The notes under the pieces are model-generated. The model was not told the DNA's origin and did no database searches. It saw only the letters and a list, made by a program, of their open reading frames with translations. Shown here piece after piece: positions 12,793-29,726 of a stretch of DNA of 64,000 nucleotides. Where the stretch lies: positions 161,987-225,986 of the forward strand of contig JALGXW010000001.1 in NCBI GenBank assembly GCA_029821875.1. Direction: 5' to 3'. Source of the DNA: Candidatus Hebobacterum abditum (lineage in GTDB: Bacteria; Armatimonadota; Hebobacteria; Hebobacterales; Hebobacteraceae). Both the position numbers and the translations under genes were made by a program. The first letter of the stretch is position 1; each line of letters starts with the position of its first letter.

Positions 12793-12858
12793 CCTGCGCG
12801 GCCGCGAGGTCGGCCTGGCAATATGAGGAGATGACTCTCGACCAAGGAGGAGCGGTTC

Positions 12859-14254: not shown

Positions 14255-14644
14255 TTGCGTCCCTTCATGGTTGCCCTCTTCCTTCTCATCGCGATAACGC
14301 TTGGCGCCTTCGGGCAGATCTCGCTGAAGCACGGGATGAAGCAGTTCGGCCCTCTCGGACAGCCGGGCGCCGGACTTGTGTCCAACTTGCTGCGGGCCGT
14401 CTTCACGCCGTACGTGCTCCTCGGCCTGAGCTTGTACGCCATCAGCTCTGGCTTCTGGCTCGTCGTGCTGAGCAGCTGGCAGCTGAGCTACGCCTATCCG
14501 ATGATCGCGACCAACTACCTGCTGGTGGTATTGCTGTCCCGCGTGTTCTTCAAGGAACAGGTTATGCCCCTCCAGTGGGCTGGGATTCTCCTCATGGTCA
14601 CCGGACTGGTGCTGGTGGCCAGCTATGGCGTCTCCAAGGGATAG
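14255..14644 (+). CDS. small 4-TM EamA/SMR-like (ArnE/ArnF-type, DMT superfamily) membrane protein; candidate polyprenyl-phosphate-sugar flippase subunit
   Basis: 129 aa, four hydrophobic helices, EamA-like WLVVLSSWQLSYAYPM. GAAAGGAG RBS 8 nt before the TTG start. Its TAG stop at 14642-14644 is the only stop separating it from the in-frame YfhO ORF downstream. Confidence 0.6.
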   Translation: MRPFMVALFLLIAITLGAFGQISLKHGMKQFGPLGQPGAGLVSNLLRAVFTPYVLLGLSLYAISSGFWLVVLSSWQLSYAYPMIATNYLLVVLLSRVFFKEQVMPLQWAGILLMVTGLVLVASYGVSKG

Positions 14645-14779
14645 AGGCCGCTGGAACACGAATCAGCTAGAAGCAGGCGGATCTTCGTCCTCCTCGCTCT
14701 GCTCGCCGTTCCGACGCTGCTGGTTGGCCCGGCGCTGCTGCCCGGCCGCGCGCTGCTTCCCGCAGACTTCCTCGTCCAG

Positions 14780-17032
14780 ATGGAGCCCTGGCGCTCGCAA
14801 GTCGACGCGATCCCGCGCGCCTACTGGGACCCTCTGGTGTGGGACGGGATTGCGCAGTACTATCCCTGGCGTGTGTTCGCGGCTCGGGCGCTGGGCGCCG
14901 GCGTCTTGCCTCTGTGGAACCCGCACCAATTCTGCGGCACGCCCTTCGTCGCGAACGGCCAGTCGGCGGTGTTCTATCCGCTGAATATCATCTTCTGGAT
15001 CCTTCCCGTCGCAAGCGCCTTCGGGTGGTCGGCCTGGCTGCACCTGGGGCTGACCGGATGGTTCCTCTACTTGTTCCTTCGCCGGCTCGGCGTTGGACGG
15101 TTTGGGACAACTGCGGGGGCCGTCGTGTGGCAGGGCAACGCCTTCTTCGTTGCCTGGATGCATCTGCCTACCGTCCTCGCCACGGCCTCCTGGTTGCCGC
15201 TGGTATTGCTGCTGGCAGGACGAGCCGTCGCCTCGGGCTGGGCGCGGTCGGCAGTGGCCGCGGGCGTGGCCCTCGGCGTCTCCTACCTGGGGGGCCATCC
15301 TCAGGTATTCCTTTTCGTGTGCCTCATGACGGCGGCCTATCTCATCGCTCGCGCGTGGAGTCGGGGCCTGAATCTGGCGCTCCCTGAACGGCTGGGGAGA
15401 CTCGCCTCCATGGGCCTTGTCATCGGCCTGACGGGTGCGGGGCTCTCGGCCCTGCAGACTCTCCCCACCTGGGAGTTGCTCGGGATCGCGCATCGCTCCG
15501 GGGCCCCTGGGCCCGAGGGCTACCGCTACTTCCTCTCTCATGCCATGCCTGGGGCGCAGTTGGCCGGCTTGATCGTCCCCCATGCTTTCGGACATCCTGG
15601 GCTCGGGAGCTATGTGGGTCGAGACAACTATGCCGAGTTCGCAGCCTATGTCGGCGCGGCCGCCGTTGTGCTCGCCATGTGGGGCGCGGTCGGCTCTCGC
15701 ACCTGGTACGCGCGGTACTTCGCGGCGGCCCTGCTCGTGTCGCTCCTTCTGGTGCTGGGCACGCCGCTGAATTGGCCGCTGTATCACTGGGTTCCAGGCA
15801 TCGCCCGCTCGGGCGGCCCGGGACGCCTGGTGCTCCTCGCCGTGTTCGCGATGAGTGTGCTCGCCGCTGTCGGCGCCGATGAGCTCGCGCGCAGGAGCGC
15901 CCAGCGAAGGCTTGGCGCGCTTGGCGGGTTCAGTGTCGCAGTTCTCTTGCTGGGTGCCGGCTACTGGGCCTACCTGCTGCGCGTGAAGCCGGGGGTCATA
16001 GCGCTGCAGCCGGGGGGCGGAACTCGAGCGACGTGGGAGGGCATTCAGGTTGGACTGGTGATCATACTTGCCGTCTCCTGCGTGGTGATGCTCTCGCGAC
16101 CCAGGATGCGGCACATCGGACAGGTGGCCTTGATCATGCTGCTCGCCGCGGATCTGGTGCTGGCCGCGCGCGGCCATCTGCACATCTCGCGACAGCAGTG
16201 GGTCTACAGCGCGCTGCCATTCGAGAGGAGCAAGGAGAGACGCGTCCTCGGCAACGCAAGAGACTGGCCGATCAATCGGTTCCCGATTGCCGCGCTGCCG
16301 CCCAACTCGGCGACTGTCTACCAACTTCGCGATGCCTTCGGATATGACTCGTTGTACTTGGCGCGCTTCCGTGACTTCGCGGCCGCGGTTCAGCATGGGG
16401 ATCCCAGCCCGCCTTTGAATGGGAACATGCTGCTGCCGAGGCTGAGCCAGACATATGGGCTCGACATGATGAGCCTGGCCGCCGTCGAGACAGTGGTCTC
16501 TCCGATCCCTGTGCGCGGGTTGAGGATGGAGCGAGCGGGAGCATACTACGTCTACTCGAACCCGTACGCGTGGCCGCGCGCGTGGGTCGCGGAATCGGCG
16601 GTGCACGTTGCCAGCCACACCGATGCAGTGGCGACACTTGTGCGGCTCGGTCCCAGCCAGGATTGCGTGATAGTCACCGGCATGGAGGAGCTGGCGGGGG
16701 AGGTGGCGGGAGAGGAGCGTCCCAGCGCGCGCGTTCGAGACACGACGCCCAACGAGGTCGCGGTGGAACTCTCCCGGCCTGGCGGCGGCTATCTCTTCCT
16801 TGCGGATGCGTTCGCGCCGGGCTGGCGCGCATACGCCGGCGCGCGGCAGCTTGCCATCCGGCCGGCATACGTGGGATTCCGGACGGTGTCACTGCCTGTG
16901 GACGCAGAGTCGGTCGTTTTCCGCTACGAGCCGGGGAGCTTCCGGGTGGGCCTCTTCGTGTCGCTGCTCACGGCGATGGCGATAGCAGCCGCCTGCGCAC
17001 AGCAGCCGGTCTGGCGACGGGAACAGCGATGA
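14780..17032 (+). CDS. YfhO-family GT-C fold membrane glycosyltransferase, paralogue 1
   Basis: PLWNPHQFCGTPFVANGQSAVFYPLN, typical of the YfhO N-terminal loop; many TM helices; C-terminal extracytoplasmic domain ending in a final TM. Start coordinate is the first canonical start in the track, but the expected first TM helix is encoded in frame upstream without an ATG/GTG/TTG. Confidence 0.75.
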   Translation: MEPWRSQVDAIPRAYWDPLVWDGIAQYYPWRVFAARALGAGVLPLWNPHQFCGTPFVANGQSAVFYPLNIIFWILPVASAFGWSAWLHLGLTGWFLYLFLRRLGVGRFGTTAGAVVWQGNAFFVAWMHLPTVLATASWLPLVLLLAGRAVASGWARSAVAAGVALGVSYLGGHPQVFLFVCLMTAAYLIARAWSRGLNLALPERLGRLASMGLVIGLTGAGLSALQTLPTWELLGIAHRSGAPGPEGYRYFLSHAMPGAQLAGLIVPHAFGHPGLGSYVGRDNYAEFAAYVGAAAVVLAMWGAVGSRTWYARYFAAALLVSLLLVLGTPLNWPLYHWVPGIARSGGPGRLVLLAVFAMSVLAAVGADELARRSAQRRLGALGGFSVAVLLLGAGYWAYLLRVKPGVIALQPGGGTRATWEGIQVGLVIILAVSCVVMLSRPRMRHIGQVALIMLLAADLVLAARGHLHISRQQWVYSALPFERSKERRVLGNARDWPINRFPIAALPPNSATVYQLRDAFGYDSLYLARFRDFAAAVQHGDPSPPLNGNMLLPRLSQTYGLDMMSLAAVETVVSPIPVRGLRMERAGAYYVYSNPYAWPRAWVAESAVHVASHTDAVATLVRLGPSQDCVIVTGMEELAGEVAGEERPSARVRDTTPNEVAVELSRPGGGYLFLADAFAPGWRAYAGARQLAIRPAYVGFRTVSLPVDAESVVFRYEPGSFRVGLFVSLLTAMAIAAACAQQPVWRREQR

Positions 17033-18723
17033 GTGATCCTGGGCAGGGGGAGGGCTCGCGGGGCAGATGGCTCATCGCGGCCCCGGTCCTGCTGTTTGTC
17101 GGCGCCCTCGCCGTGCGCGTTGTCGGGCTCGGCTGGGGCCTGCCCAACGAGGATCACTACTTCTCCTATCACCCCGACGAGGTCTTCCTGCTGCTGCCGT
17201 CCTTCCGCTTTGCCGTCGGCGAGTTCAACCCAGGGTTCTTCAACTACGGGAGCCTCTACCTATACCTCGTCGGCCTGCCGGCCGTGGCGCTGGGCCTTGT
17301 CCCTGACTTCGCTGACTTCCCTCGGGGGGTGCGAGCGCTGTACCTGGAGGCGAGACTCATCACCGCCCTCCTCGGCGCGGCCACGGTGCCTCTGCTCTAC
17401 CTTGCTTTGCGACGCGAGCACAGCTCGATGGCACTGCTGTCCTCCGGGCTGCTTGCCGTCTGTCCGCTGCACGTGGTGAACAGCCATTACGCGACGGTCG
17501 ACGTGCCGGCGACCTTCTTCCTGGCTGTCGCCTTCCTCCTGGCGCTTCGCGGCGCGAGGCAGCCAAACGCGGTTAGTGGGATGCTCGCCGGCCTTGCCGT
17601 TGGCTTGGCTGCCGCCACGAAGTACAACTCAGTCCTGTTCCTCCTGCCGGTGTTGTGTGCTCCACTCCTTGTGAGGCGCGAGAGTGGCTCTCTTGCGGCC
17701 TGGTTCGTGGGCGTCCCCGCGGGGGCAGCACTCGGCTTCCTGATCGGCAACCCCTATGTCTGGACGGAGGAGTTTGCCAAGGGCATCCGTTTTGAGCTTG
17801 ACCACGCGCGCAGGGGCGGCACACTGGCCTTCGAGGGAACCGGCTCTGGCTGGGCCTACCACCTGACTCGCGGTCTCCCCGTCGCGCTCGGCTATCCGCT
17901 GCTCCTTGCAGCCGGCGTTGGCGCCATCGCCGCCATTGTCAGGGGCTCTCCTGCCACCCGTCTGTGCCTCCTGTGGGTCGCCATCTACCTATTTGCCATC
18001 GGCTTCGGCAGAGAGCGATTCATCCGGTACCTGGTCCCTCTCACGCCGTTCCTCTGCCTTCTCGCCGCCTGGGGCGTGTGTTCCCTCGTTGCCGCGAAGC
18101 GCGCCCGGGGGCAGGTGAGCGCCAGCGCTGCAGCCATCGTCCTCGCGCTGCTTTGTGCGCTCTACTCCTTCGGTCAGATCTCCGCGTTCGTCCGGCTCGA
18201 CCCGCGCGATATGGCTTGGCGGAGCGGGCAGACCATACTCGCTTCCCGAGCTGCGGCTGGAGACACGCTCCCCGAGTTTGCTGTTCGGCAGACAGCCTTG
18301 GCTCCCATCCCTGTTGACCTCGGCCGACGTCGGGCGAGGATCGGCCTTGCAGGTGTGCCCTGGCACTACCATCCTCCCGTTTCCCCCTACAACGCTGGCC
18401 AGTTCTCGGTCGCCTGGTTCGAGCGATGGAATAACGCCACAGGTAGCCGGATCGCGATCACGGGGTGGGACGCCGAGCGGCTGCGCGCGGCTCCTCCGGT
18501 GCTCTTCTTCATCTCCGACCTGGAGAGCGCGGATCTCAGGCGCCTCGGCCGCGTGGAAGTCGTCAACTTTCTGTCCGCGCTTGACGAGACATACGGTGCA
18601 CGCGCCGTGTATGGTGCCAGGACCCTTCCTTTCTCCTGGCTTGGGCCGCCTCGACGTCGGCAGCCCCCAGACTGGCTCTATCCCGCGCCGGAGATCACCA
18701 TGTACTACGGTGCCACTCCGTGA
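17029..18723 (+). CDS. polytopic membrane glycosyltransferase, GT-C fold (ArnT/PMT-like, GT39/GT83-type)
   Basis: Start ATG 17029 overlaps the previous stop (ATGA). N-terminal TM followed by a NEDHYFSYHPDE acidic loop motif and more than 10 predicted TM helices. Confidence 0.6.
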   Translation: MSDPGQGEGSRGRWLIAAPVLLFVGALAVRVVGLGWGLPNEDHYFSYHPDEVFLLLPSFRFAVGEFNPGFFNYGSLYLYLVGLPAVALGLVPDFADFPRGVRALYLEARLITALLGAATVPLLYLALRREHSSMALLSSGLLAVCPLHVVNSHYATVDVPATFFLAVAFLLALRGARQPNAVSGMLAGLAVGLAAATKYNSVLFLLPVLCAPLLVRRESGSLAAWFVGVPAGAALGFLIGNPYVWTEEFAKGIRFELDHARRGGTLAFEGTGSGWAYHLTRGLPVALGYPLLLAAGVGAIAAIVRGSPATRLCLLWVAIYLFAIGFGRERFIRYLVPLTPFLCLLAAWGVCSLVAAKRARGQVSASAAAIVLALLCALYSFGQISAFVRLDPRDMAWRSGQTILASRAAAGDTLPEFAVRQTALAPIPVDLGRRRARIGLAGVPWHYHPPVSPYNAGQFSVAWFERWNNATGSRIAITGWDAERLRAAPPVLFFISDLESADLRRLGRVEVVNFLSALDETYGARAVYGARTLPFSWLGPPRRRQPPDWLYPAPEITMYYGATP

Positions 18724-20390
18724 CTGACTCACCTCCGATACGGAGACCCCCCGGCACGACTGCCTCCGAGCTCCGCTGGGCGGGCGGTTTCGCCGCAGTG
18801 GCCGTGCTGCTACTCAGCATCCCGTATCTCTACGGTCTGTCGATCCGGCCCGAAGGCGCCTACTACTCGGGCCTTCTCACCAATCCAGACGAACACAACG
18901 TCTACCTCGCCTACGTGAAGCAGGTCCAGCAAGGCCGCCTCTTCCTGATCGATCCGTTCACTTCGGAGCCGCAGGCGGGGCGCGTCCTCAACGTCTTCTT
19001 CCTTGGCCTCGGTCTATTCGCGCGACTAACGAGGCTCCAGCTGCCTGTCGTTTACCACATGGCGCGGCTCGCCTCTGGGTGGCTGCTGCTGATGGCCATC
19101 TACTGCCTCGGAGCCCAGGCGATAGCCGATGTCCGCGCCCGTCGCCTGGCGCTCGTCCTTGCTGCCTTCGCCTCGGGTCTGGGGTGGGCCTGGCGAGCAC
19201 AGCCAGGGCAGCCACATCCGATAGACTACGGGCCAGGACTCATCATGCCCGAGGCGGTCACGTTTCTCAGCTTGCTGCTCAATCCGCTCTTTTGCTTCTC
19301 GATGTTCCTCATGGTCGCCATCGTGGGCTTTGGCGCGCATGCCTTCTGTTCGGGTTCGCTGCGATCCGCCGTCATCGCTGGGTTAGCAGGTCTCGTCCTC
19401 GGGAACATCCATACCTATGACATAATCCCCGTTGGCGCGACGCTGGCGGTGTTTCTGCCCTACCTGTGGATACGGCGTTCGGCAGGTGTTCGGGCGCTCG
19501 GCCTGGCGGCTCTCTCCGCGGGGATCGCACTCCCATCGGTCGCGTATCAGCTATGGCTCCTACGAAGCGGCGAGGTAACGCTGGCCATCAAGGCCGCTGA
19601 TACCCCAGTCTCCTCTCCGGCCCCGCTCATGCTGGCGATGGGAATCGGCCTGCCGCTTGCCTTCGCAGTGGTTGGGGCTGCCCGCGCAGCATGGCGTGGG
19701 GCGCCGCCCGGCGCGGTGCTGCTGGCAGTCTGGCTTGTGATCGGGCTTGCCGCGCCCTATCTGCCGGACGTCCCCTTCCAGCGCAAACTCGCCCAGGGCG
19801 TCCAGATTCCTGCGATCCTGCTCATGGCGTTCGCCATGCAGCCTCTGCTCGCCCGGGCTAAAGGCTGTGCCGCAGGGATGCTCGCCGCCCTCATCGTGCT
19901 CCTCACACTGCCGTCGAGCGTCCTCTTCGTGGCACGCACTGTGAGGGACTTGCAGACGAACAACAAAGCATACCTGCCCAACCTCATGCCCCCACTCTAT
20001 CTCCGAGCGGACCAGCACGCCGCCTTGAAGTGGTTAGATCAGCGCGCCGACTACGGCGATGTTCTGCTGTGCAGTTCGTTCATGGGAAGCTATGCTCCAT
20101 CCTTGGCAGGAACGCGGGTCTATCTCGGACACTGGGCGGAGACCTTGCACTTCCCACAGAAGCTCAGAGTCTACGCGGCCTTCCTCAACGCGAGGGCAGA
20201 CGACTCATCCAGGGAGGCCTTTGTCCGCCAAGCCGAAATCACGTACGTTCTGCGTGACCGGAGCATCTACGATGATGCGTACAACCTGTCCCCCGAGGGA
20301 GAGGTGCTCCCGTCCTTCGACGCCGAGAGCGCGGCCTGGTTGGTTCCGGTCTACGCGAACGACAGCGTTTCCCTGTATCGTGTAGACTAG
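18720..20390 (+). CDS. polytopic membrane protein, putative GT-C fold glycosyltransferase
   Basis: GTG start overlapping the previous stop (GTGA). TM1, then an NPDEH loop motif, about 11 TM helices and a C-terminal soluble domain. Family not recognised. Confidence 0.45.
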   Translation: MTDSPPIRRPPGTTASELRWAGGFAAVAVLLLSIPYLYGLSIRPEGAYYSGLLTNPDEHNVYLAYVKQVQQGRLFLIDPFTSEPQAGRVLNVFFLGLGLFARLTRLQLPVVYHMARLASGWLLLMAIYCLGAQAIADVRARRLALVLAAFASGLGWAWRAQPGQPHPIDYGPGLIMPEAVTFLSLLLNPLFCFSMFLMVAIVGFGAHAFCSGSLRSAVIAGLAGLVLGNIHTYDIIPVGATLAVFLPYLWIRRSAGVRALGLAALSAGIALPSVAYQLWLLRSGEVTLAIKAADTPVSSPAPLMLAMGIGLPLAFAVVGAARAAWRGAPPGAVLLAVWLVIGLAAPYLPDVPFQRKLAQGVQIPAILLMAFAMQPLLARAKGCAAGMLAALIVLLTLPSSVLFVARTVRDLQTNNKAYLPNLMPPLYLRADQHAALKWLDQRADYGDVLLCSSFMGSYAPSLAGTRVYLGHWAETLHFPQKLRVYAAFLNARADDSSREAFVRQAEITYVLRDRSIYDDAYNLSPEGEVLPSFDAESAAWLVPVYANDSVSLYRVD

Positions 20391-20393
20391 ACC

Positions 20394-21866: not shown

Positions 21867-24250
21867 AGGTCCCGAGCAAGAAACTGGATCGCACCTCTTG
21901 GTGGCCGGTGCTGTTGATCGTCGGCTCGGCCTGCGCGTTCTGTTGGCCGGTGTTCGCCGGGCGCGTGATGCTGCCAGCCGACATGTGTCTGCTCATGCTG
22001 CCGTGGAACGAGTTGAGATCACAGTTCCCCGAGTTCTACCGGCCGCACAATCCGATGTTCGATCCGATACAGCAGTATCTCCCCTGGCGGATCTATGCGG
22101 TCGAGTCGCTCAGGGCCGGCTTCATCCCGCTGTGGAATCCCTACGCATTCTGCGGAACGCCGTTTCTCGCCAACCTGCAGTCCACAGTTCTCTACCCCCT
22201 GAACCTGCTGTTCTTGCTTGTCGGCGCTCGGCACGGCTTCGGCGTCTCCGCCATCATCCATCTGAGCCTTGGTGGGCTCTTCATGTACGCCTTCCTACGC
22301 ACACTGGGGCTGAATCCCGCGGCGTCGCTCGTGGGCGCGCTGGTGCTGATGTTCAACGGATTCACAGTGGCGTGGCTCGAGTTCCCGACGCTTTCGCTCT
22401 GGGTCTTCATGTGGCTGCCGGGCCTTCTGCTGTGCTACGAGCGCGCGCTCCGCGCCCCTCGATCCATCTGGCCGGCGCTCTGCGCCGCCGTCGTCGGCGT
22501 GCAATTCCTCGGGGGGCACTTACAGGTGTCCACGTATGTCATGCTCGCGTTCCTGCTCTACGCGCTCGTGCGGGTCGCTGGCGGCAAGGAGAGCGTGGGG
22601 TACAGGGCCGTTGCTGGCGGACTCGCCATCGGCACAGTGGTGGTCGGGCTGGCCTTCGCGGCCGCTCAGGTGCTCCCGACGCTCGAGCTGGCGGAGCACA
22701 GCGGGCGCGTGACGGCCGAATCCGGCGCCGCGGTTGGCACGGCCTTCCCCCTCACGCATCTGGTCCTCTATCTCGTCCCCAACTTCTTCGGGAATCCGGT
22801 GAACTACAACTACTGGGGCGACTATCAGAATCCCGGCGTCATCAACTTCTTTGAGACAGCATGCTATGTCGGTGTGCTCCCGCTGTTCCTGGGCGCTTGG
22901 TCTCTGCGGCTCTGGCGGCGCCGTGAGGTCGTGTTCTTCGGCGCGCTGACACTGCTGGCCGTGCTGGTGGCCATCGGGTCGCCGGTCTACCTGCTGCTGC
23001 ACAAGGCAGTGCCCGGGTTCCGCGAGCTGGCCGGGCTGGGACGCGTGCTCTGCCTGGCCGCCTTCGGCCTTGCCGGTCTCGCCGCCGTTGGCCTCAACGA
23101 TCTCCTCGGCGACAGACTGCCCAAGCGATCCAGCCAATATGTCATCGCTCCCATGCTAGGGCTCGTCTGGATGACGGTCGCCTACTACGAGTATCAGCCG
23201 CTCCGCAACCTCCTCGACGCGACTCTGCGCTTCAACGCGTACCTGGTCTGGCAGATCGTAATCGCGGCTGCGTTGGTGGTCTTTTCCGGCCTTCTTGTCG
23301 GGCTCCGTGTGCGTGCTCGTCTCCCCACAGGCGCCGTCGGCGCGGTGGCCTGCTTGCTGCTCCTTGCCGATCTCTTCCTCTTCGGCCTCGGCTTCAACCC
23401 ATTCACCGATGCCCGAATGGCCTACCCCACGACCGATTCAACGCGCTGGCTCGAGAGTCACATCGAGCACTCGCGGATGGTCTCCCTCGCCTCCGATAGG
23501 CTCGACTGGATGGCCCATAACAGCCCGGTGATCTTTGGGCTGAGGGATATCCATGGGTCGGACTCTCTCCGCGTCAGGCGGTCGTTCGAACTGGTCTCAG
23601 GGGAAGATCTGGACCAGGCTCGCTATCCCCCGTCCGATTCGCCGCTGCTGGATGCGCTGGGCGTCCGCTACCTCATGACCCGCCAACGAGTTGAGGACGG
23701 CTGGATGCTGGCCTATCCGGGACAGAGCCCGATCTACGAGAACACGGAGGCTGTCCCCAGGGCTCGCCTCGTCCACGACTTCCGGACCGGGACCGATGCC
23801 GAAGGCATGGCCGCCCTGCAAGAGGGCGGCCGACGCGCTCGGAAGGCGATCTTGCACCCGGACGGAACGGGCCCTGAGCTGGCTCGCCGGAGCAGTCCGG
23901 CGCTGGGGGATCCCGCGGCGAAGGTGAGCTTCGTGCGCGACGCGCCAAATGAGATCGTCATCGAGACGGAGAGCGCGGCTCCGGCGCTGCTCGTCCTTAG
24001 CGACTCATACTACCCAGGCTGGCGCGCCTGGGTCTACGAGACACCGGCGACCATTGTCCGCGCCAACTACGCATTCCGAGGGATCGCAGTGCCGGCAGGG
24101 CGACAGCGCGTGACACTCCGCTATGAGCCCACAAGCTTCCGCCTGGGACTGTACATCTCGCTGCTTGCCGTCTCGCTGCTGTCGGCCTGGGCGATGGCAG
24201 CCTACCTAGCCGCGCCGGCAAGGACATCAGAGACGGCCGCGCGGTCGTAG
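21863..24250 (+). CDS. YfhO-family GT-C fold membrane glycosyltransferase, paralogue 2
   Basis: ATG overlaps the previous stop (ATGA). N-terminus MKVPSKKLDRTSWWPVLLIV... and PLWNPYAFCGTPFLANLQSTVLYPLN. C-terminal region (SDSYYPGWRAW...LRYEPTSFRLGLYISLL) is parallel to paralogue 1. Confidence 0.75.
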   Translation: MKVPSKKLDRTSWWPVLLIVGSACAFCWPVFAGRVMLPADMCLLMLPWNELRSQFPEFYRPHNPMFDPIQQYLPWRIYAVESLRAGFIPLWNPYAFCGTPFLANLQSTVLYPLNLLFLLVGARHGFGVSAIIHLSLGGLFMYAFLRTLGLNPAASLVGALVLMFNGFTVAWLEFPTLSLWVFMWLPGLLLCYERALRAPRSIWPALCAAVVGVQFLGGHLQVSTYVMLAFLLYALVRVAGGKESVGYRAVAGGLAIGTVVVGLAFAAAQVLPTLELAEHSGRVTAESGAAVGTAFPLTHLVLYLVPNFFGNPVNYNYWGDYQNPGVINFFETACYVGVLPLFLGAWSLRLWRRREVVFFGALTLLAVLVAIGSPVYLLLHKAVPGFRELAGLGRVLCLAAFGLAGLAAVGLNDLLGDRLPKRSSQYVIAPMLGLVWMTVAYYEYQPLRNLLDATLRFNAYLVWQIVIAAALVVFSGLLVGLRVRARLPTGAVGAVACLLLLADLFLFGLGFNPFTDARMAYPTTDSTRWLESHIEHSRMVSLASDRLDWMAHNSPVIFGLRDIHGSDSLRVRRSFELVSGEDLDQARYPPSDSPLLDALGVRYLMTRQRVEDGWMLAYPGQSPIYENTEAVPRARLVHDFRTGTDAEGMAALQEGGRRARKAILHPDGTGPELARRSSPALGDPAAKVSFVRDAPNEIVIETESAAPALLVLSDSYYPGWRAWVYETPATIVRANYAFRGIAVPAGRQRVTLRYEPTSFRLGLYISLLAVSLLSAWAMAAYLAAPARTSETAARS

Positions 24251-25833
24251 GCGAGCAGCACGGGAGTCTCCCCCACGGTGACCTCCCAGACCGGCTCTTC
24301 CTCGCTTACGAGTGACCAGGCCAGTTGAGTGTAGTCGCTCTGCATGGCCTGGAACATCACGTAGTCGGCGGTCCGCGCGTCGGTTTCTTCCCCGGTGAAC
24401 TCGACGTCCGGCCGGAGGCTCCCGGCCTGCTGCTGGAACTCGAGAAGGTAGATGACGCCCGTCGGGATCAACAGCACGCGGGAGGAGGGCTTCTCCACCT
24501 GGTTGAGGAAGAGCGGCGCCTCCTGGAACACCTGCCCCCAGTAGATGGTCTCGAATCCCCGTTGTCTCGCACCTTCGGGCCCTCCCACGAGGATGTTGTA
24601 GTAGGCGAGCTGGTAGGGGTGGGTGCGGGCGATCCCGCTGAGGCTCGGCAGCAGCAGAGCGCCCCCGAGGATCACTGCAACCGCGACCGAGAGGAGCGCG
24701 CCATGGGCCTGCCGGCGGCGAACCGGCCTGGTGAGCTGCGCCTGGAGCCACGCGAACCCCCCTCCGGCCAGCGCGGCCAAGAACGGGAACGCGGGCAAGA
24801 ACAGGCGAACGCCGTTGTACTTCGGGCTGGTCGGCAGTGCGCTGGGGAGCAGTGACAGGGCCAGGCCCAACAGGATCAGGACCCGTTCCGGATCCCTCTT
24901 CCGGCGCGCCCATGCCCGCTGTGCTCCCAGCAGCGACAGCAGCAGGATGAGCGTGGGGGTCGTCACCGCGGTGAGCACGAACGGGTAGTGCCAGGGCGCG
25001 TACTCGTGGAGCTGGCCGAGATACCACACGTTGTAGGCCGCATGCCGGAAGTGGAACGCGAGGTACTCCCTCAGGTGGTCCCCGAACCCAATCCAAAGCC
25101 ACGGCCATCCGAGCACGAACACCGCCGGGCCGATGAGCAAGAGCAGCACCACTAGCTTGAGCCAGCGCTGCTGGTAGAACAAGAGCCCCCAGGCGAGCAG
25201 AAGGACGGGGAGGAAGAACGCGTTAAGTTTCGACATGAGCGCGAGGCCGAATGCCACTCCCGCGAGGACGGTCCAGCGCCAGGAGTTCCTGCGAACGGCC
25301 TCCGCCGCAAGCGCGGCCGTGATGAAGAACCAGGCCGTGATCGGCATATCGAGCGCAATGAAATGCGCGTGAGCGACGACCCGCGGCAGCAGCGCGAAGG
25401 CCAGCGCGCCGAAGAGCGCTCCTCGCCGCCCCCAGATTCCCCGGGTGAACAGGTAGATCGCGCAGGCCGTGAGCGCAAACCAGAGCGCGCTCGGCAGCCG
25501 GATCGCCGCCAAGCCCGGCAGGTACTGGCCAAACCACCGCTCGGAGAAGCCGGAGGCACACTTCTGGAGCGGGGGATGTTCGTGGTTGAGACGCCAGGTC
25601 GAATGGATCTCATCCCGACCGAAGGCCTGGAAGTCCCCGTGGAAGACGCGCGCCCACCAGTCGGCATAGCGGATACCCGCTGAGGCATAGTGCGGCTCGT
25701 CATAGGTGGGGCCGTAGTGGGTTGCCGTCACGACCGTGACATAGAACGTGCCGATGAAGAGCAGGGCGATGAGTGCCCATTCCAGGGGCCCGAGCCTGGG
25801 ACGGTCTACTGGCGGATCTTTCTGAGCTTCCAT
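24202..25833 (-). CDS. GT39/PMT_2-family (ArnT/PMT-like) GT-C membrane glycosyltransferase
   Basis: Start at the MEAQKDPP methionine (ATG 25831-25833). YDEPHY acidic loop and the LNHEHPPLQK signature typical of PMT_2/ArnT-type enzymes; many TM helices. Its 3' end overlaps the convergent YfhO-2 by 49 nt. Confidence 0.7.
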   Translation of the reverse strand: MEAQKDPPVDRPRLGPLEWALIALLFIGTFYVTVVTATHYGPTYDEPHYASAGIRYADWWARVFHGDFQAFGRDEIHSTWRLNHEHPPLQKCASGFSERWFGQYLPGLAAIRLPSALWFALTACAIYLFTRGIWGRRGALFGALAFALLPRVVAHAHFIALDMPITAWFFITAALAAEAVRRNSWRWTVLAGVAFGLALMSKLNAFFLPVLLLAWGLLFYQQRWLKLVVLLLLIGPAVFVLGWPWLWIGFGDHLREYLAFHFRHAAYNVWYLGQLHEYAPWHYPFVLTAVTTPTLILLLSLLGAQRAWARRKRDPERVLILLGLALSLLPSALPTSPKYNGVRLFLPAFPFLAALAGGGFAWLQAQLTRPVRRRQAHGALLSVAVAVILGGALLLPSLSGIARTHPYQLAYYNILVGGPEGARQRGFETIYWGQVFQEAPLFLNQVEKPSSRVLLIPTGVIYLLEFQQQAGSLRPDVEFTGEETDARTADYVMFQAMQSDYTQLAWSLVSEEEPVWEVTVGETPVLLAYDRAAVSDVLAGAAR

Positions 25834-26555
25834 GGCAGAACCAGCGCCTCGGCCACAATCGAGCCGGACATCTTCGACTTGCCGGCCCTTCTCTCCGTGA
25901 AGCAAATGGGCACTTCCACAACGCGGCAGTCGGCCGCCGCGGCGCGGACGGCCATCTCGATCTGGAAACCGTAGCCGCGCGTCCTCACGGCGTCACGGTC
26001 GATGGCCTCGAGTGCGCGGCGGCGCCACATCCGAAACCCGGCCGTCAGGTCCCGGACGCGCGCGCCGAGCACTGCCCGGACATACGTATTGCCCCACGTG
26101 CTGAGCAATCGCCGTCGGAGACCCCATCCCTCGGTGCGCCCGCCTGGCACATACCGAGAGCCGATGGCCAGTTCGGCCTCGCCGAGTGCCTCGAGCAGGC
26201 GGGGAAGGTCCGACGGATCGTGAGAGAAGTCCGAGTCGATCTGGCCCACGAAGTGAACGTCCGGCCGCCGGAGCGCCTCCCCAAAGGCGGCGAGGTAGGC
26301 CGGACCGAGGCCCTCCTTCCGCTCTCGGTGCAGCACAGATACGCGTGGTTGCTCACGCGCGATATCGTCCGCCAACTCGCCCGTGCGGTCGGGAGAGTTG
26401 TCGTCAACCACCAGCAGTCGCCAGCCTCCAGACAGAGCTAGCACGGCCTCAACAAGAGCCGGCAGCGTCTCCCGCTCGTCGTACGTTGGCACCACGACGA
26501 GAGCCTTCCCGGGGTCCGGCCTCGGCGACTCCTCGGTTGATAGCGGTCCTGACAA
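25806..26555 (-). CDS. GT2 polyprenyl-phosphate sugar synthase (DPM1/Ppm1/GtrB/ArnC-like)
   Basis: 249 aa; ALVVVPTYDERETL, LLVVDDNSPDRT and DSDFSHDP motifs of dolichyl/polyprenyl-phosphate mannose or glucose synthases. TTG start preceded by GAGGAG. Confidence 0.8.
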   Translation of the reverse strand: MSGPLSTEESPRPDPGKALVVVPTYDERETLPALVEAVLALSGGWRLLVVDDNSPDRTGELADDIAREQPRVSVLHRERKEGLGPAYLAAFGEALRRPDVHFVGQIDSDFSHDPSDLPRLLEALGEAELAIGSRYVPGGRTEGWGLRRRLLSTWGNTYVRAVLGARVRDLTAGFRMWRRRALEAIDRDAVRTRGYGFQIEMAVRAAAADCRVVEVPICFTERRAGKSKMSGSIVAEALVLPWKLRKIRQ

Positions 26556-26575
26556 AAGCCAACTCCTCTGCTACA

Positions 26576-27619
26576 ATGGCTCAGCCTCTAATGCGGATAC
26601 TATCCATCGCTCCGAGTTTCCATCCCGCCATCGGCGGCGTCGAAACACACGTGCGCCGCGTCTCCGAATGCCTCGTCGACAAGGGCCATGAGGTGACCGT
26701 GCTCACCCACGCCGATGCAGCCTCAGAAGAGACGCTTGCAGGGGTCCGCGTGCGCCGGCTCCCACGAACCGGTTGGCTGAGAGCGTGGAGAGCGGCCCGC
26801 CCCCACATCGCCTCCGCTGATATTGTACACTGCCACGACGCCTACAGCTTCCTCCATTTCTACCTACCATCCTGCTGGTTGCCTCCCCGCCGCCCGGTCT
26901 TCGCCACTTTCCATGGCTACGAGCAGTACCCGATCCTAGGCGAGGCCATCCGCCGCCGGCGCTTCGTCCGGCGGCGAGTCATCAACGCACTCTGCATGGG
27001 GGAGTTCATCTGTCGGTGGTACGAGACGTCGTGCTTCGCGGTGTCATACGGCGGAACAGACCCCGTGGCCGTCCCTCCGTCGCTTCCAGAGCAACCGTCG
27101 GCCGTCTTCATCGGGCGCCTTGCCGAGGACACGTCGCTCATGCTGTACTTGGACGCGCTCGCCATCCTGCGCCACGACTATGGAAGAAACCTTAAGCTCG
27201 CCGTGGTCGGGGAGGGCCCGTTGCGATCGGTGGCAGAGAAGTTCGCGGAAGCTCAAGGCCTGCGCGTAAGGTTCCTGGGCGCGGTGGCCGACCCAGGTCC
27301 CTTGCTCGACGCGGCGAGTTTCGCCTTCGTCTCGGGCTATCTCGGGATCTGGCAGGCCTTGGCTCGGCGGCGTCTCGTCTTCGGCGTCTACGAGAACGAG
27401 CTGAAACGCGACTACGTCGCCTGCTTCCCGGAGGCCGAGAAGGTACTGGTGATCTCCGACAGCGCCGCTGATCTTGCGGCTGTCTTGAACCGCCACGTGG
27501 GCGCGCCCGCCGCTGGCGAGGCAATGCGCGAGCGAGGCGCGCAGCTGGCCGCCGAGAATACGTGGGAGAAGGTCGCGCAGTTGTACCTCGCGATGTACCG
27601 CGCGCACGGCTTCGCCTGA
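26576..27619 (+). CDS. GT4-family glycosyltransferase
   Basis: MRILSIAPSFHPAIGGVETHV N-terminus (GT-B N-domain) and a C-terminal Glycos_transf_1-like region. Start uncertain (ATG 26576 or 26591); the listed ORF start 26186 would overlap the divergent GT2 gene. Confidence 0.75.
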   Translation: MAQPLMRILSIAPSFHPAIGGVETHVRRVSECLVDKGHEVTVLTHADAASEETLAGVRVRRLPRTGWLRAWRAARPHIASADIVHCHDAYSFLHFYLPSCWLPPRRPVFATFHGYEQYPILGEAIRRRRFVRRRVINALCMGEFICRWYETSCFAVSYGGTDPVAVPPSLPEQPSAVFIGRLAEDTSLMLYLDALAILRHDYGRNLKLAVVGEGPLRSVAEKFAEAQGLRVRFLGAVADPGPLLDAASFAFVSGYLGIWQALARRRLVFGVYENELKRDYVACFPEAEKVLVISDSAADLAAVLNRHVGAPAAGEAMRERGAQLAAENTWEKVAQLYLAMYRAHGFA

Positions 27620-27620
27620 C

Positions 27621-29726
27621 ATGCCCAGGTGCACCGTCTCGCTCATCACAACCGTCCTCGACGAGGAGGGGAGCATCGAGCCCCTGCTCCAGTCGCTGGC
27701 CGATCAGCGCAGGCAGCCCGACGAAATCATCATCTGTGATGCCGGGTCCACGGACAGCACGGCTAACATCATCCGGCAGTGGATCGTCGACGGCTTCCCC
27801 GCGCGGCTGATCGTCGAGCAGGGCGCGAACCGCTCCAAGGGCCGGAACCGGGCCATTGAGAAGGCGACCGGCGAAGTCGTTGCCAGCATCGACGGGGGAT
27901 GTGTTGCCGGCAGGGACTGGCTCGCGAACCTGATCGCTCCCTTTGATTCAGATGACCCACCCGACGTCGTCGCCGGCTACTACGAGCCCGACACCGACAC
28001 GCAAATGGAGGACGCAATCGCCGTCGCTACCGTGCCGGCATCGGCCGAGGTTGACCCCGAAACCTTCCTGCCGTCGGGTCGCTCTGTCGCCTTCCGGCGG
28101 GATGCCTGGCGGCGCGTCGGCGGCTACCCCGAGTATGTCGATTACGCCGAAGACACGGACTTCGGCGTCCGGCTCAAGGCAGTGGGCTGCAAGTTCGACT
28201 TCGCGCCTGACGCTGTCGTCCACTGGCGCATGCAGACCGATCTGCTGCGGGTGTTCCGGCAGTTCTTCCGCTACGCCCGGAGTGACGGCCAACTCGGGCA
28301 CTGGTTCGTCCACTACCGAAAGGCCTATCTTGGATTCCTTCTCGCCTTCTTGCTGGCATTGCTCACCGAGACCGGCTCCGCGTGGGCGCCGTTTGTGCTG
28401 GTGGGACTGCTCGCCGCCCACTGGGTGCGCTACACGACACGCGCCCGGCATCGAGGCGCGGAATGGCTTGCCGCGCTTGTGTCTCCGGGTGTTTCGCTGA
28501 CAGTGGATGCCGCGCACCTCGTCGGCTATTCCCGCGGTTTCCTCCGCCATCGGCCTGCTCCGCCCCGGCTGCCGGCCGATCGGCCGCTGTCAGTCGCCCA
28601 GGTGACCTATACCTATCGCCCGCTCTCAGGCGGGGCCGACGTCTATGTTTCCCAGCTCGCGGAGATGATCACAGCGGCCGGACACGAGCACCGCGTCTAC
28701 CAGCGACAATCCGAAACCGACGCGGCCGACGTGACCTTCGTGCCCAATCCCTGGCATGGTGCGCCGCTCGAGTTCTGGACCCAGGCGCTGGCGCTGTTTC
28801 GCCTTCGCAAGGAGCTGCTCGCGCACGACGTGGTGATCTGCCACTACCCGCACTACTTGCTCGCGCTGGACCTCATGAGCTTCTTCGCGAGGCGGCCTCT
28901 ACGTGTGGCGGTCTCCCACGGGGTCTTCTGGGATGACGCGCCGGGTTCGCCGAAGAGCTTCGTCAAGGCGTGGCTCACGAAGATCGCATTCCGTCGAGCT
29001 CACCTCTACATCGCCAATGATTCTCACTTCCTTCGCGCCATGGGAATGGAGATCGAGCCCCGCCAGGCCATGAACTCGCTGATTGCGCCGGGCGTGTGGT
29101 TCGTCCCCAACGGTGTGGATGCTGAGAAGTTCCGGCCCGCCCAGCCGGCACACAAGTTGCGCGAATGGAACGCAATCCTCGTGCCCCGGAATCTCTTCCG
29201 CAACCGCGGCATTCACCTCGCCATCGAGGCCTTCGCTCAGTTCCATCCCCTGCATCCGGAGACGATCCTGTTCATCGTCGGCGGCGGAGGTCAGCGGGAG
29301 TATGTGGCGGCCCTGAAGCGGGAGGTCGAGGAGCGCGGCCTCCGCCGGTGTGTCGTCTTCTATGGGCCAGTGCCCCGCGACGAGCTGCCTGCGATCTACT
29401 CGAGCGCCGAGATGACACTCATCCCATCCATATGTGGCGAGGGCACGTCTCTCGGCGCACTGGAGAGCATGGCCTGTGGCACGGCCACCATCTGCACCTA
29501 TGTCGCCGGCCTCCGCGACCTCCCCGGGCCGCACTGTCTGCCGATGGTCGCCGGCCTGGTCGAGACGATGGAGGCCGTGTATCCGAACCGGAAGCAGGTA
29601 GGGGAGGAGCAGCGGGAGATCGTCTCCGAGGTCTACTCTATCGAGAGGTGGCGCGCGGCGTGGCGCGGTGCGCTGGCCGCGTGCGGGGTAAGGGAAGGAC
29701 CCGAGCAGGACCCGGCCAGCGGCTGA
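27621..29726 (+). CDS. bifunctional glycosyltransferase: N-terminal GT2 domain fused to a C-terminal GT4 (GT-B) domain
   Basis: 701 aa; N-terminal SLITTVLDEEG...ICDAGSTDST...DGGC GT2-like region, a central TM/hydrophobic segment, and a C-terminal GT4 region (EGTSLGALESMACG). Confidence 0.75.
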   Translation: MPRCTVSLITTVLDEEGSIEPLLQSLADQRRQPDEIIICDAGSTDSTANIIRQWIVDGFPARLIVEQGANRSKGRNRAIEKATGEVVASIDGGCVAGRDWLANLIAPFDSDDPPDVVAGYYEPDTDTQMEDAIAVATVPASAEVDPETFLPSGRSVAFRRDAWRRVGGYPEYVDYAEDTDFGVRLKAVGCKFDFAPDAVVHWRMQTDLLRVFRQFFRYARSDGQLGHWFVHYRKAYLGFLLAFLLALLTETGSAWAPFVLVGLLAAHWVRYTTRARHRGAEWLAALVSPGVSLTVDAAHLVGYSRGFLRHRPAPPRLPADRPLSVAQVTYTYRPLSGGADVYVSQLAEMITAAGHEHRVYQRQSETDAADVTFVPNPWHGAPLEFWTQALALFRLRKELLAHDVVICHYPHYLLALDLMSFFARRPLRVAVSHGVFWDDAPGSPKSFVKAWLTKIAFRRAHLYIANDSHFLRAMGMEIEPRQAMNSLIAPGVWFVPNGVDAEKFRPAQPAHKLREWNAILVPRNLFRNRGIHLAIEAFAQFHPLHPETILFIVGGGGQREYVAALKREVEERGLRRCVVFYGPVPRDELPAIYSSAEMTLIPSICGEGTSLGALESMACGTATICTYVAGLRDLPGPHCLPMVAGLVETMEAVYPNRKQVGEEQREIVSEVYSIERWRAAWRGALAACGVREGPEQDPASG

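Follow-up and report, generated by a model that had tools for sequence, protein, structure and literature searches.

The window analysed here, a stretch of 64,000 nucleotides from Candidatus Hebobacterum abditum, contains ten genes arranged back to back across positions 14255-29726, as judged from its open reading frames and from family searches of the window (g1 to g10; Table 1). A sequence-only reading of the same DNA had counted nine genes in this interval; the gene content and motifs that it quoted are otherwise in place, including signal peptidase I (g0) immediately upstream and an LCP protein elsewhere in the window. From g0 to g6, the start and stop codons of neighbours overlap or lie 1-14 nt apart: the gap between g0 and g1 is 14 nt, and the ATGA starts of g3 and g6 overlap the stops of g2 and g5, respectively. 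Because stop and start codons overlap, the genes from g0 to g6 are probably co-translated. g6 and g7 are convergent, with a 49-nt overlap at their 3' ends. Only one gene had been assigned to the minus strand; g7 is indeed there, but so is g8, which overlaps the start of g7 by 28 nt to form a single minus-strand unit with it. g9 diverges from g8 across a spacer of 35 nt and is separated by 1 nt from g10. The three components of a candidate glycosylation system, namely g8, g1 and g2-g7, are found together inside 12 kb of overlapping genes.

Table 1. Genes of the cluster and two further genes of the window.
Gene	Assignment	Position	Strand	Main evidence
g0	signal peptidase I (LepB)	13593-14240	+	Peptidase_S26 E 4.6e-31; TIGR02227 113 bits
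g1	half-size EamA/SMR-fold 4-TM protein, 129 aa	14255-14644	+	Pfam EamA 29.4 bits
g2	YfhO-type GT-C paralogue A, ~793 aa	~14651-17032	+	Pfam YfhO 27.5 bits
g3	PMT/PMT_2-type GT-C, 564 aa	17029-18723	+	PMT 55.9, PMT_2 48.4 bits
g4	GT-C-fold protein, 556 aa	18720-20390	+	AF2 model, Foldseek
g5	divergent GT-C, 490 aa	20394-21866	+	AF2 model, Foldseek, profile
g6	YfhO-type GT-C paralogue B, 795 aa	21863-24250	+	Pfam YfhO 56.3 bits
g7	PMT_2-type GT-C, 543 aa	24202-25833	-	PMT_2 60.3, PMT 41.7 bits
g8	Dpm1/Ppm1-like GT2, 249 aa	25806-26555	-	Pfam GT2 100 bits
g9	GT4, cytoplasmic, 342 aa	26591-27619	+	Glyco_transf_4 60.7, Glyco_trans_1_4 34.7 bits
g10	GT2-2TM-GT4 fusion, 701 aa	27621-29726	+	Pfam GT2 + GT4 domains
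	LCP protein	48765-49970

By homology or by fold, all six polytopic proteins, g2 to g7, are GT-C enzymes. Two of them are YfhO paralogues, as had been proposed. g6, containing PLWNPYAFCGTPFLAN, is above the Pfam YfhO cut-off (56.3 vs 28.5 bits), and g2, containing PLWNPHQFCGTPFVAN, is slightly under it (27.5 vs 28.5 bits) and aligns with g6 over the full length (31% identity, E 1e-69). PF09586 is matched by 20 of the 25 YfhO family members (best 1.4e-21), and relatives carry the NCBI name 'YfhO family protein.' The best-scoring Pfam YfhO stretch listed for g2 and g6 comprises only the C-terminal ~80 profile positions, and therefore the two represent a divergent YfhO branch. D64 is invariant in g2/g6. 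There is no canonical start codon in g2 before TM1, the first being an ATG at 14780, after TM1; the residues aligned with g6 include those upstream of 14780. The start of g2 is uncertain, a conserved CTG at 14651 being the candidate.

About four further GT-Cs had been expected, and g3 and g7 are found by Pfam and g4 and g5 by the fold of their AF2 models. g3 and g7 both pass the Pfam PMT/PMT_2 gathering thresholds, and their families are connected at 98.7% by hhalign. The first loop of g3 has an invariant S-Y-H-P-D-E motif, and that of g7 holds YDEPHY and EHPPLQK; the latter had been taken for a PMT_2/ArnT-type signature. The public gene call for g7 also has 543 aa. Besides a weak match of g7 (E 0.0019), no Pfam match to GT87 (PimE/Mpt) was found among the cluster genes. 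The g5 protein itself matches nothing in Pfam or NCBIfam. However, several of its relatives carry PF13231 and are named 'glycosyltransferase family 39' or 'methylthioxylose transferase,' its family profile matches AglB (3waj, E 3.4e-6), and its AF2 model (pLDDT 93.1) retrieves AftA, STT3, AglB, ArnT and ALG12 at probability 1.0 in Foldseek. A T-H-P-P motif is invariant and GEWVW is conserved after TM1. Judging from its relatives and its model, g5 is a divergent GT-C related to PMT_2/GT39.

What, then, is g4? It has no Pfam or NCBIfam match, and its family has no model in either. Its AF2 model (pLDDT 90.6) has ArnT as a top structural match. For both g4 and g5, the high-probability structural matches are catalytic GT-Cs only, transporters appearing at probability <=0.16. 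The refuting outcome named by the earlier reading, HMM hits placing the membrane proteins in unrelated families such as transporters, did not come about. The g4 family is connected with the g3 family at 98.2% by hhalign, its sole link to PMT, and we group it with its PMT-type neighbours as a putative PMT-related family. D57 (in NPDE) after TM1 is invariant in 37 sequences, and the protein ends in a C-terminal periplasmic alpha/beta domain; one member of the family has an N-terminal DnaJ domain. An assignment to the oligosaccharyltransferases (STT3/AglB/PglB, GT66) was rejected: WWDYG is missing, GHWAET is conserved at 470-475, the similarity is at the fold level only, and ArnT, AftA and ALG12 have almost the same structural scores. 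A sequence search of the PDB with the g4 profile returned no chain at E<=10, hence no oligosaccharyltransferase. GT-C families recognisable by fold alone have founded new CAZy families (PMC11127046).

Conserved acidic residues directly follow a K/R-preceded N-terminal TM in all six families: HPDE in g3, NPDE in g4, GEW in g5, YDEP in g7 and D64 in g2/g6. Those of g3, g4 and g5 lie in the acidic first loops that had been noted. The K/R before TM1 and the fold match suggest that these residues are extracytoplasmic; crude hydropathy topology is unreliable for these proteins.

The DPM1-like GT2 proposed from the letters is borne out by homology. g8 carries PTYDERE, DDNSPDRT and DSDFSHDP, and its best solved relative is the Dol-P-Man synthase of P. 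furiosus (5mlz, E 4e-33, 118 bits, residues 17-244), with which PTY-ERE, DD-SPDRT, D-D--H-P, IGSRYV-GG and GF are aligned, D-S-D lying over D-A-D. The match to ArnC, whose matched chains are 322-363 aa long, is far weaker (46 bits), and g8 falls short of all NCBIfam equivalog cut-offs (AglJ, 65 vs 325 bits; ArnC, 48 vs 529 bits). g8 has no strongly hydrophobic C-terminal segment and is thus of the soluble type without C-terminal TM helices. It is predicted from these relatives to be a polyprenyl-phosphate hexose synthase, most likely for mannose.

g1 corresponds to the EamA/SMR-like 4-TM protein of the earlier reading. It passes the Pfam EamA cut-off (29.4 vs 28.2 bits), and EmrE is matched by its family profile (E 6e-6). 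Its nearest named relatives in NCBIfam are ArnF (E 1.8e-10) and ArnE (E 2.1e-9), although the equivalog cut-offs are not reached (41.3 vs 99 and 37.5 vs 92 bits, respectively). By sequence, g1 is homologous to ArnE/ArnF, yet no equivalog of them. Glycolipid transporters occur among SMR-type proteins (PMC9574504), and g1 adjoins YfhO in many related loci, several of which have a tandem g1 pair. We regard g1 as a candidate polyprenyl-phosphate-sugar flippase, probably acting as a homodimer; flipping is unproven even for the model proteins (PMC11127046).

The two cytoplasmic enzymes were also recognized by Pfam as foreseen. g9, a GT4 with weak NCBIfam matches, is kept beside g8 in L004-L009 and L012. 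g10 consists of a GT2 domain (residues 7-126, 68 bits), a hydrophobic linker with room for about two TM helices at about residues 230-290 of the translation, and Glyco_transf_4 (337-469) and Glycos_transf_1 (517-633, 74.6 bits) domains; these domains are split onto separate genes in Zipacnadia-type loci. g0 exceeds the TIGR02227 cut-off (113 vs 47 bits) and precedes g1 or g4 not only in L004-L009 but in the distant loci L025, L044, L045 and L053 as well. It belongs to a longer conserved housekeeping order (priA-def-fmt-TPR-RACo-B12-binding protein), which makes the adjacency of signal peptidase I weak functional evidence, and g0 may or may not share the function of the cluster.

A comparison of genomes revealed the complete order g0-g10 in at least five other MAGs (L004, L005, L006, L008 and L009), with protein identities of 50-90%, so the arrangement is not due to chance. 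In other classes of Armatimonadota, the core of g1, g2 and g4 (EamA-like, YfhO and unannotated GT-C) recurs. g4 is the most conserved cluster member across related loci, and YfhO adjoins it in 27 of the 40 loci having both flanks. Many lineages keep g1-g2-g4, or g4 alone, at this place, while g3, g5, g7, g9 and g10 come and go. The GT2 does not adjoin the g1-YfhO-g4 trio in many loci, and therefore donor synthase and transferases may not form an obligate set; Zipacnadia-type loci have a g8-like GT2 in the interval from g4 to g6. One assembly supplies the sole example of a fusion: P0278, a protein of 1,352 aa on a low-GC metagenomic contig, unites YfhO with g4, and behind it come a 244-aa GT2 and a Wzy_C protein.

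The word 'island' applied by the sequence-only reading is misleading. GC is 0.65-0.66 both inside the cluster and elsewhere in the window, housekeeping genes stand on either side, and neither the ORF survey nor the Pfam survey showed an integrase, transposase or tRNA at the borders. Horizontal acquisition was rejected on the normal GC, the lack of visible mobility genes and the synteny conserved in other Armatimonadota lineages. As far as gene order and composition tell, the cluster is an ancestral, syntenic and vertically inherited part of the Armatimonadota chromosome. Three points go beyond that reading: this place of the cluster in the chromosome, as opposed to an accessory island; the g4 family, which lacks a Pfam or NCBIfam model, as the conserved partner of YfhO; and the housekeeping context of signal peptidase I.

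From gene content, family and fold assignments, conserved motifs, synteny and the YfhO-g4 fusion, we infer the catalytic activities, the sugar, flipping by g1, the partnership of YfhO with g4, and the acceptor, as outlined below. On the cytoplasmic side, g8 would load a hexose, most likely mannose from GDP-mannose, onto polyprenyl phosphate. g1 would dimerise and flip the polyprenyl-phosphate-sugar in the style of ArnE/ArnF, and the six GT-Cs, working on the outer side of the inner membrane, would pass the sugar on. The inner part of the acceptor, which would depend on nucleotide sugars, would come from the GT4 (g9) and the membrane-tethered GT2-GT4 (g10). The favoured acceptor is a membrane-anchored glycan that would grow step by step, in the manner of PIM/lipomannan assembly in actinobacteria. 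YfhO and g4 may be the ancestral working pair, with the remaining GT-Cs as lineage-specific additions. There is precedent for three-component glycosylation systems (PMC11127046, PMC8035078), and Ppm1 feeds PPM-dependent GT-C arrays in lipoglycan synthesis (PMC3485146). A multi-enzyme transmembrane glycosylation system, with a lipid-anchored glycan favoured as acceptor, seems the best explanation as a whole, and we hold it to be rather probable; the cluster would most likely build or decorate a glycoconjugate of the envelope. Its general three-component mechanism (synthase, flippase and GT-C), which the earlier reading had also put forward and whose elements are each borne out by homology or fold, is quite likely. 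The lipid-anchored glycan as the specific acceptor is a tentative choice, somewhat short of an even chance. Since the cluster holds no phosphoglycosyltransferase, Wzx, ABC exporter or anchor-synthesis gene, such an acceptor is left unsupported by its neighbours, and we know of no lipomannan-like lipoglycans in LPS-bearing diderms. The host organisms are reported to be such diderms (PMC10290634).

By enzyme classes and numbers, the best match among known systems is the actinobacterial Ppm1 pathways, in which PimA/PimB' (GT4) and then PimE, MptA, MptB and MptC (GT-C) build PIM/LM/LAM. Common features would be a soluble-type Dpm1-like synthase feeding an array of different GT-Cs and cytoplasmic GT4s building the inner part of a glycolipid (PMC3485146, PMC12041525). 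However, the actinobacterial genes are dispersed instead of forming a single cluster, no inositol-lipid genes were seen here, phylum and envelope type differ, and mannose is in our case a predicted sugar. CsbB/GtcA/YfhO of B. subtilis and GtlA/GtcA/GtlB of Listeria are three-component systems for lipoteichoic-acid glycosylation (PMC5836110, PMC7389260, PMC8035078). A GT2 synthase, a small membrane flippase candidate and an outside-acting YfhO GT-C are common to our cluster, to these two systems and to GtrB/PgtC2 and PgfS/PgfM1 of streptococcal protein glycosylation (bioRxiv 10.1101/2024.05.05.592596). In contrast to these systems, the present host has a diderm envelope with LPS genes, and teichoic acids are not known from it; the flippase candidate is of the EamA/SMR type and not of the GtrA/GtcA type, six GT-Cs replace one, and YfhO has a partner from another GT-C family that lacks annotation. 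g8 is Dpm1-like and does not have the C-terminal TM helices found in the CsbB/GtrB/ArnC-type GT2 (~310-330 aa). PMT_2-type GT-Cs and the order from synthase through flippase to transferase are shared with ArnC/ArnE-ArnF/ArnT, which adds aminoarabinose to lipid A, but g8 matches ArnC weakly, ArnA, ArnB and ArnD genes are absent, and the single g1 suggests a homodimer instead of the ArnE/ArnF heterodimer, though some relatives have a tandem pair. The GtrA/GtrB/Gtr* systems for O-antigen glucosylation and the GT136 pentofuranose systems also employ a periplasmic GT-C using a polyprenyl-phosphate-monosaccharide, but these are accessory, often phage- or serotype-linked and have one GT-C, whereas here six belong to a conserved core-genome cluster.

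Could the acceptor be protein instead? In general O-glycosylation, the PMT-type and YfhO-type GT-Cs would put mannose or another hexose from polyprenyl-phosphate-sugar on Ser/Thr of Sec-exported or membrane-anchored proteins, the several GT-Cs serving different protein classes or extending the glycan. Ppm1/PMT O-mannosylation in actinobacteria and the GtrB/PgtC2 and PgfS/PgfM1 systems of streptococci are the models. The PMT/PMT_2 scores of g3 and g7, the DE...HPPL-K pattern in loop 1 of g7, the DnaJ domain on a g4-family protein and the YfhO-family enzyme PgtC2, which adds glucose to Ser/Thr-rich regions of membrane proteins (bioRxiv 10.1101/2024.05.05.592596), all speak for this, as does signal peptidase I immediately upstream in both near and distant loci, although this position may merely reflect the longer housekeeping order. 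Against it, what the GT4 and GT2-GT4 would do in a one-step reaction is not obvious, known systems use far fewer than six transferases, and no Ser/Thr-rich candidate substrate was found, the LCP protein of the window having no such region. We consider this explanation unlikely, though one to be taken seriously. ArnT-like GT-Cs could instead modify the lipid A or core of LPS in the periplasm from a polyprenyl-phosphate-sugar, with ArnC/ArnE-F/ArnT or the galacturonosyl system RgtE/RgtA-D of Rhizobium as models. This is improbable: genes for lipid A, Kdo or heptose are missing from the window, g8 is much closer to Dol-P-Man synthase than to ArnC, and no LPS role is known for YfhO enzymes. It would accord with the LPS and Kdo biosynthesis that the MAGs are reported to encode (PMC10290634), with ArnF and ArnE as the nearest named relatives of g1, and with a KdsC-like HAD phosphatase ~6 kb downstream of g4 in Zipacnadia-type loci, an assignment that is generic (Pfam Hydrolase_3 only).

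A different question is whether there is one system at all. The GT-C genes might come from several unrelated pathways and be mere neighbours with no single donor, flippase or product; the variable genes around g1-g2-g4 or g4 alone and the frequent location of the GT2 elsewhere fit this. But the overlapping codons imply co-translation of g0 to g6, the order is kept down to ~50% protein identity, and the YfhO-g4 fusion is followed by a GT2 on an unrelated low-GC contig, so that we find mere neighbourhood decidedly improbable. Far less credible still is that the membrane proteins are transporters or non-catalytic GT-C folds like PIG-U/GAB1 of the GPI transamidase: although g4 and g5 themselves match no family model, their high-probability structural matches are all to catalytic GT-Cs, the acidic residues of loop 1 are invariant, and a donor synthase is encoded alongside.

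A bolder extension of the favoured transmembrane glycosylation system, and a doubtful one, is that the EamA-like/YfhO/g4 trio is a machine conserved widely in Armatimonadota, and possibly essential there, in which YfhO and g4, the latter from a hitherto unrecognised PMT-related GT-C family, are an obligate pair, the trio making an undescribed envelope glycoconjugate. If so, the product of the trio might be, for example, a mannan-type lipoglycan or general O-mannosylation in an LPS-bearing diderm, and the lineage of the window would have expanded the trio's machinery to six GT-Cs.

Three-component glycosylation systems, consisting of a synthase, a flippase and a GT-C glycosyltransferase, are known mostly as accessory modules with a single GT-C, in Firmicutes, where they act on teichoic acids and proteins, and in Proteobacteria, where they act on O-antigen and lipid A. 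The known large arrays of GT-Cs depending on polyprenyl-phosphate-mannose are chiefly actinobacterial. This kind of system is well known already (PMC8035078, PMC11127046). What is new here is the phylum, the place in the core genome, the number of GT-Cs (six) and the pairing of YfhO with a GT-C family lacking a database model. A literature search yielded no paper joining Armatimonadota with YfhO, and none of the papers listed by a wider search of the GT-C, mannosyltransferase, polyprenyl and lipoglycan literature mentions Armatimonadota. The three-component logic is now extended to a diderm phylum that has hardly been studied, where it belongs to the conserved core genome, and a defined gene set is available for tracing the envelope glycoconjugate of Armatimonadota.

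ORF listing and translation give ten genes with hardly any intergenic DNA at window 14255-29726, and all of the motifs quoted in the sequence-only reading were found in the translated ORFs. From g0 to g6, each gene either shares nucleotides with the next at the stop and start codons (ATGA, GTGA) or is separated from it by 1-14 nt; g8 and the start of g7 overlap by 28 nt, and a spacer of only 35 nt separates the divergent g8 and g9. GC content is flat at 0.65-0.66. AT skew is strongly negative at 14-24 kb and positive at 24-26 kb, coinciding with the strand switch of the genes, as expected from the T-rich hydrophobic codons of membrane proteins. Family HMMs detected no additional GT-C genes in the rest of the window. 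Neither the exact 215-aa signal peptidase nor the exact 750-aa g2 has an entry among public gene calls.

Genes of the glycosylation cluster and the adjacent signal peptidase gene (window positions)
Gene	Position	Strand	Length	Assignment
g0	13593-14240			signal peptidase I (LepB)
g1	14255-14644	+	129 aa	EamA/SMR-like candidate flippase
g2	~14651-17032	+	~793 aa	YfhO paralogue
g3	17029-18723	+	564 aa	PMT/PMT_2-type GT-C
g4	18720-20390	+	556 aa	GT-C family without database model
g5	20394-21866	+	490 aa	divergent GT39-like GT-C
g6	21863-24250	+	795 aa	YfhO paralogue
g7	24202-25833	-	543 aa	PMT/PMT_2-type GT-C
g8	25806-26555	-	249 aa	Dpm1-type GT2
g9	26591-27619	+	342 aa	GT4
g10	27621-29726	+	701 aa	GT2-2TM-GT4 fusion

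The six membrane proteins are GT-C enzymes belonging to four distinct subfamilies, as Pfam families, fold matches, profile-profile links and a conserved acidic residue together indicate. Pfam assigns g6 to YfhO (56 bits), g3 to PMT and PMT_2, and g7 to PMT_2 and PMT, while the YfhO match of g2 (27.5 bits) falls slightly below the cut-off. g2 and g6 are paralogous over their full length (31% identity, E 1e-69), PF09586 is matched by 20 of the 25 members of their family, and public records call their relatives 'YfhO family protein'. No match to g4 or g5 was obtained in Pfam or NCBIfam, and structure models of both were built from homologue alignments. The g5 model (pLDDT 93.1) matches the folds of AftA, STT3, AglB, ArnT and ALG12 with a probability of 1.0; its profile detects AglB by sequence (E 3.4e-6), and some homologues carry PF13231 or are named 'GT39' or 'methylthioxylose transferase'. 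The g4 model (pLDDT 90.6) matches STT3, PglB, AglB, DPY19, AftA, AftD and ArnT in Foldseek with E down to 7e-9, transporters appearing with negligible probability only. In profile-profile comparison, g4 pairs with the g3 family at 98.2% (E 4e-14) and g3 with g7 at 98.7%. In every family an acidic residue is kept directly past the N-terminal TM helix, which is preceded by Arg or Lys; the hydropathy topology of all proteins is crude, as missed helices shift parity, and was relied on only for the position of TM1. Membership of g4 in the bacterial oligosaccharyltransferases was rejected, the WWDYG motif being absent and no sequence match being found.

Pfam places g8 in GT2, g9 in GT4 and g10 in GT2 plus GT4. 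Among proteins of solved structure, g8 is closest to the dolichol-phosphate-mannose synthase of Pyrococcus furiosus (5mlz; E 4e-33, 118 bits), with which its nucleotide-sugar and metal motifs align, whereas ArnC scores 46 bits only. By hydropathy, g8 stops at the end of the catalytic domain and has no strongly hydrophobic C-terminal segment, and is therefore of the soluble Dpm1/Ppm1 type rather than the GtrB/CsbB/ArnC type. None of the NCBIfam equivalog cut-offs was passed by g8; mannose would be our preference for the sugar. Pfam assigns g1 to EamA, its alignment with ArnF in NCBIfam is nearly full-length (E 1.8e-10, under the cut-off), and its family profile matches EmrE (E 6e-6). SMR-fold proteins include glycolipid transporters (PMC9574504), and flipping lacks direct demonstration even in model proteins (PMC11127046).

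What, then, might this cluster make? Family, fold, donor-synthase and flippase-candidate homology support the earlier proposal of three-component logic, and a multiplied three-component system is the best-supported interpretation. g8 would make a polyprenyl-phosphate-hexose, g1 would flip it and the six GT-Cs would spend it outside the membrane, with g9 and g10 presumably working in the cytoplasm. The closest counterpart in the classes and numbers of enzymes is the actinobacterial pathway, in which a glycolipid begun by GT4 enzymes is extended by PPM-dependent GT-Cs fed by Ppm1 (PMC3485146). The favored product, tentatively, would be a membrane-anchored glycan built stepwise. A rival explanation is protein O-glycosylation, for which both PMT and YfhO provide precedents; the LCP protein of the window, checked as a candidate glycoprotein, contains no Ser/Thr-rich region. 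Another is LPS modification, supported by the ArnE/F-like character of g1, by folds resembling ArnT and by the KdsC-like gene that some related loci carry. The lineages in which the g4 relatives occur are, according to PMC10290634, gram-negative and equipped with LPS genes. The sequence decides for none of these three products.

Look-ups of exact sequences locate the cluster's genes in an NCBI MAG (GCA_029821855.1). A genome scan gave 243 relatives of g4, almost all labelled Armatimonadota and the closest from a 'Candidatus Hebobacteria' MAG; 80 loci were retrieved, and tblastn and family HMMs were run over those 80. The full g0-g10 order on the same strands is found in five related loci (L004, L005, L006, L008 and L009) at 50-90% identity. 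Zipacnadia-type loci contain g1, g2, a radical-SAM gene, g4, a g8-like GT2, g6, g7 and split g10 domains, and many Armatimonadia-type loci contain g1(-g1)-g2-g4 only. Many related loci also keep the upstream order priA-def-fmt-TPR-RACo-B12-binding protein(-lepB), so that the chromosome around the glycosylation core is unusually stable, and the same genes flank the window cluster, where a RACo-type corrinoid reductive activator and a B12-binding corrinoid protein (10942-13482, + strand) lie directly 5′ of lepB. Since lepB belongs to this housekeeping order, its adjacency carries little functional weight. The cluster had been called an island; with uniform composition, housekeeping neighbors and conserved synteny, a foreign origin was rejected, and the conserved order of both the cluster and its upstream genes marks the region as an ancient piece of the core chromosome. 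Zipacnadia-type loci have a gene for a B12-binding radical SAM enzyme between YfhO and g4 (L058 8625-9995; equivalent in about 15 loci) and one for a KdsC-like HAD phosphatase about 6 kb 3′ of g4 (L033 9983-10570; about 10 loci); the window cluster has neither.

The g4 family is large and effectively unannotated, being missed by current Pfam and NCBIfam models. In a HMMER search of 1.84 billion representatives, the g4 profile matches 7,392 proteins at E<=1e-3 and 3,149 representatives (50%-identity clusters) at E<=1e-30, and of the 37 members aligned, a single one touches any Pfam model, namely DUF6541. YfhO lies next to g4, before or after it, in 27 of the 40 loci having both flanks. Moreover, a 1,352-aa protein, P0278 (L083 4756-8814; Logan contig SRR16235686_45897, GC 32%), is a natural fusion of the two: residues 44-781 align with g2 (E 2e-40) and the g4 profile matches residues 830-1352 (E 4e-129), in the same order as the genes g2 and g4. 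Its gene is preceded by TPR and ABC-transporter genes and followed by a GT2 gene (244 aa, polyprenyl-phosphate-sugar-synthase-like) and a Wzy_C (O-antigen ligase/polymerase-like) gene; though a single example, it independently ties YfhO, g4 and a GT2 together. By hydropathy, the final hydrophobic segment of g2 (763-781) comes after a long, presumably periplasmic loop, and therefore the C-terminus of YfhO and the N-terminus of g4 are both expected to be cytoplasmic, which fits a g2-then-g4 join. Adjacency and one fusion are genetic evidence that g4 works with YfhO. Another family member, P0344, has an N-terminal DnaJ (J) domain (residues 4-66, Pfam E 2.4e-25) ahead of the g4 profile match (residues 102-677); a cytoplasmic J domain attached to a GT-C is unusual.

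How does translation of g2 begin? No ATG, GTG or TTG lies ahead of TM1; a canonical start appears only with the ATG at 14780, past that helix. Public gene calls are consequently cut short, to 750 and 740 aa as against ~793 aa from the candidate start, revealing a systematic gene-call error. At the g1/g2 junction (window 14642-14780; L003 ~233, L004 ~5962, L005 ~5893), g2 is in frame with g1 and no stop occurs from the g1 TAG to TM1 in the window and three related MAGs, and a CTG two codons past the TAG is kept in all four. Most likely, translation starts or restarts at this CTG. Recoding of the TAG by pyrrolysine or readthrough was suggested by the upstream corrinoid protein and RACo genes; readthrough, which would join the candidate flippase to YfhO, is the less likely reading: TAG terminates 21 of the 51 window genes, pyrrolysine goes unmentioned in the Hebobacteria paper, and the same-frame arrangement occurs in 11 of 37 loci, about the chance rate. 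A start at the conserved CTG explains the junction more simply.

Directly after g10 is a gene for a xylose-isomerase-like TIM-barrel protein (29833-30714, - strand) with weak NCBIfam matches to sugar 3-epimerases, which still adjoins g10 in L008 and L009 at 80-83% identity; it may serve the cluster as an accessory that modifies sugars, or be a mere neighbor. Elsewhere in the window, tandem paralogues of 606 and 627 aa (56197-58017 and 58079-59962, + strand), without a Pfam match, each consist of a large soluble part flanked by one TM helix at the N-terminus and further TM helices at the C-terminus, the second ending in a poly-proline, Arg/Gly-rich tail.
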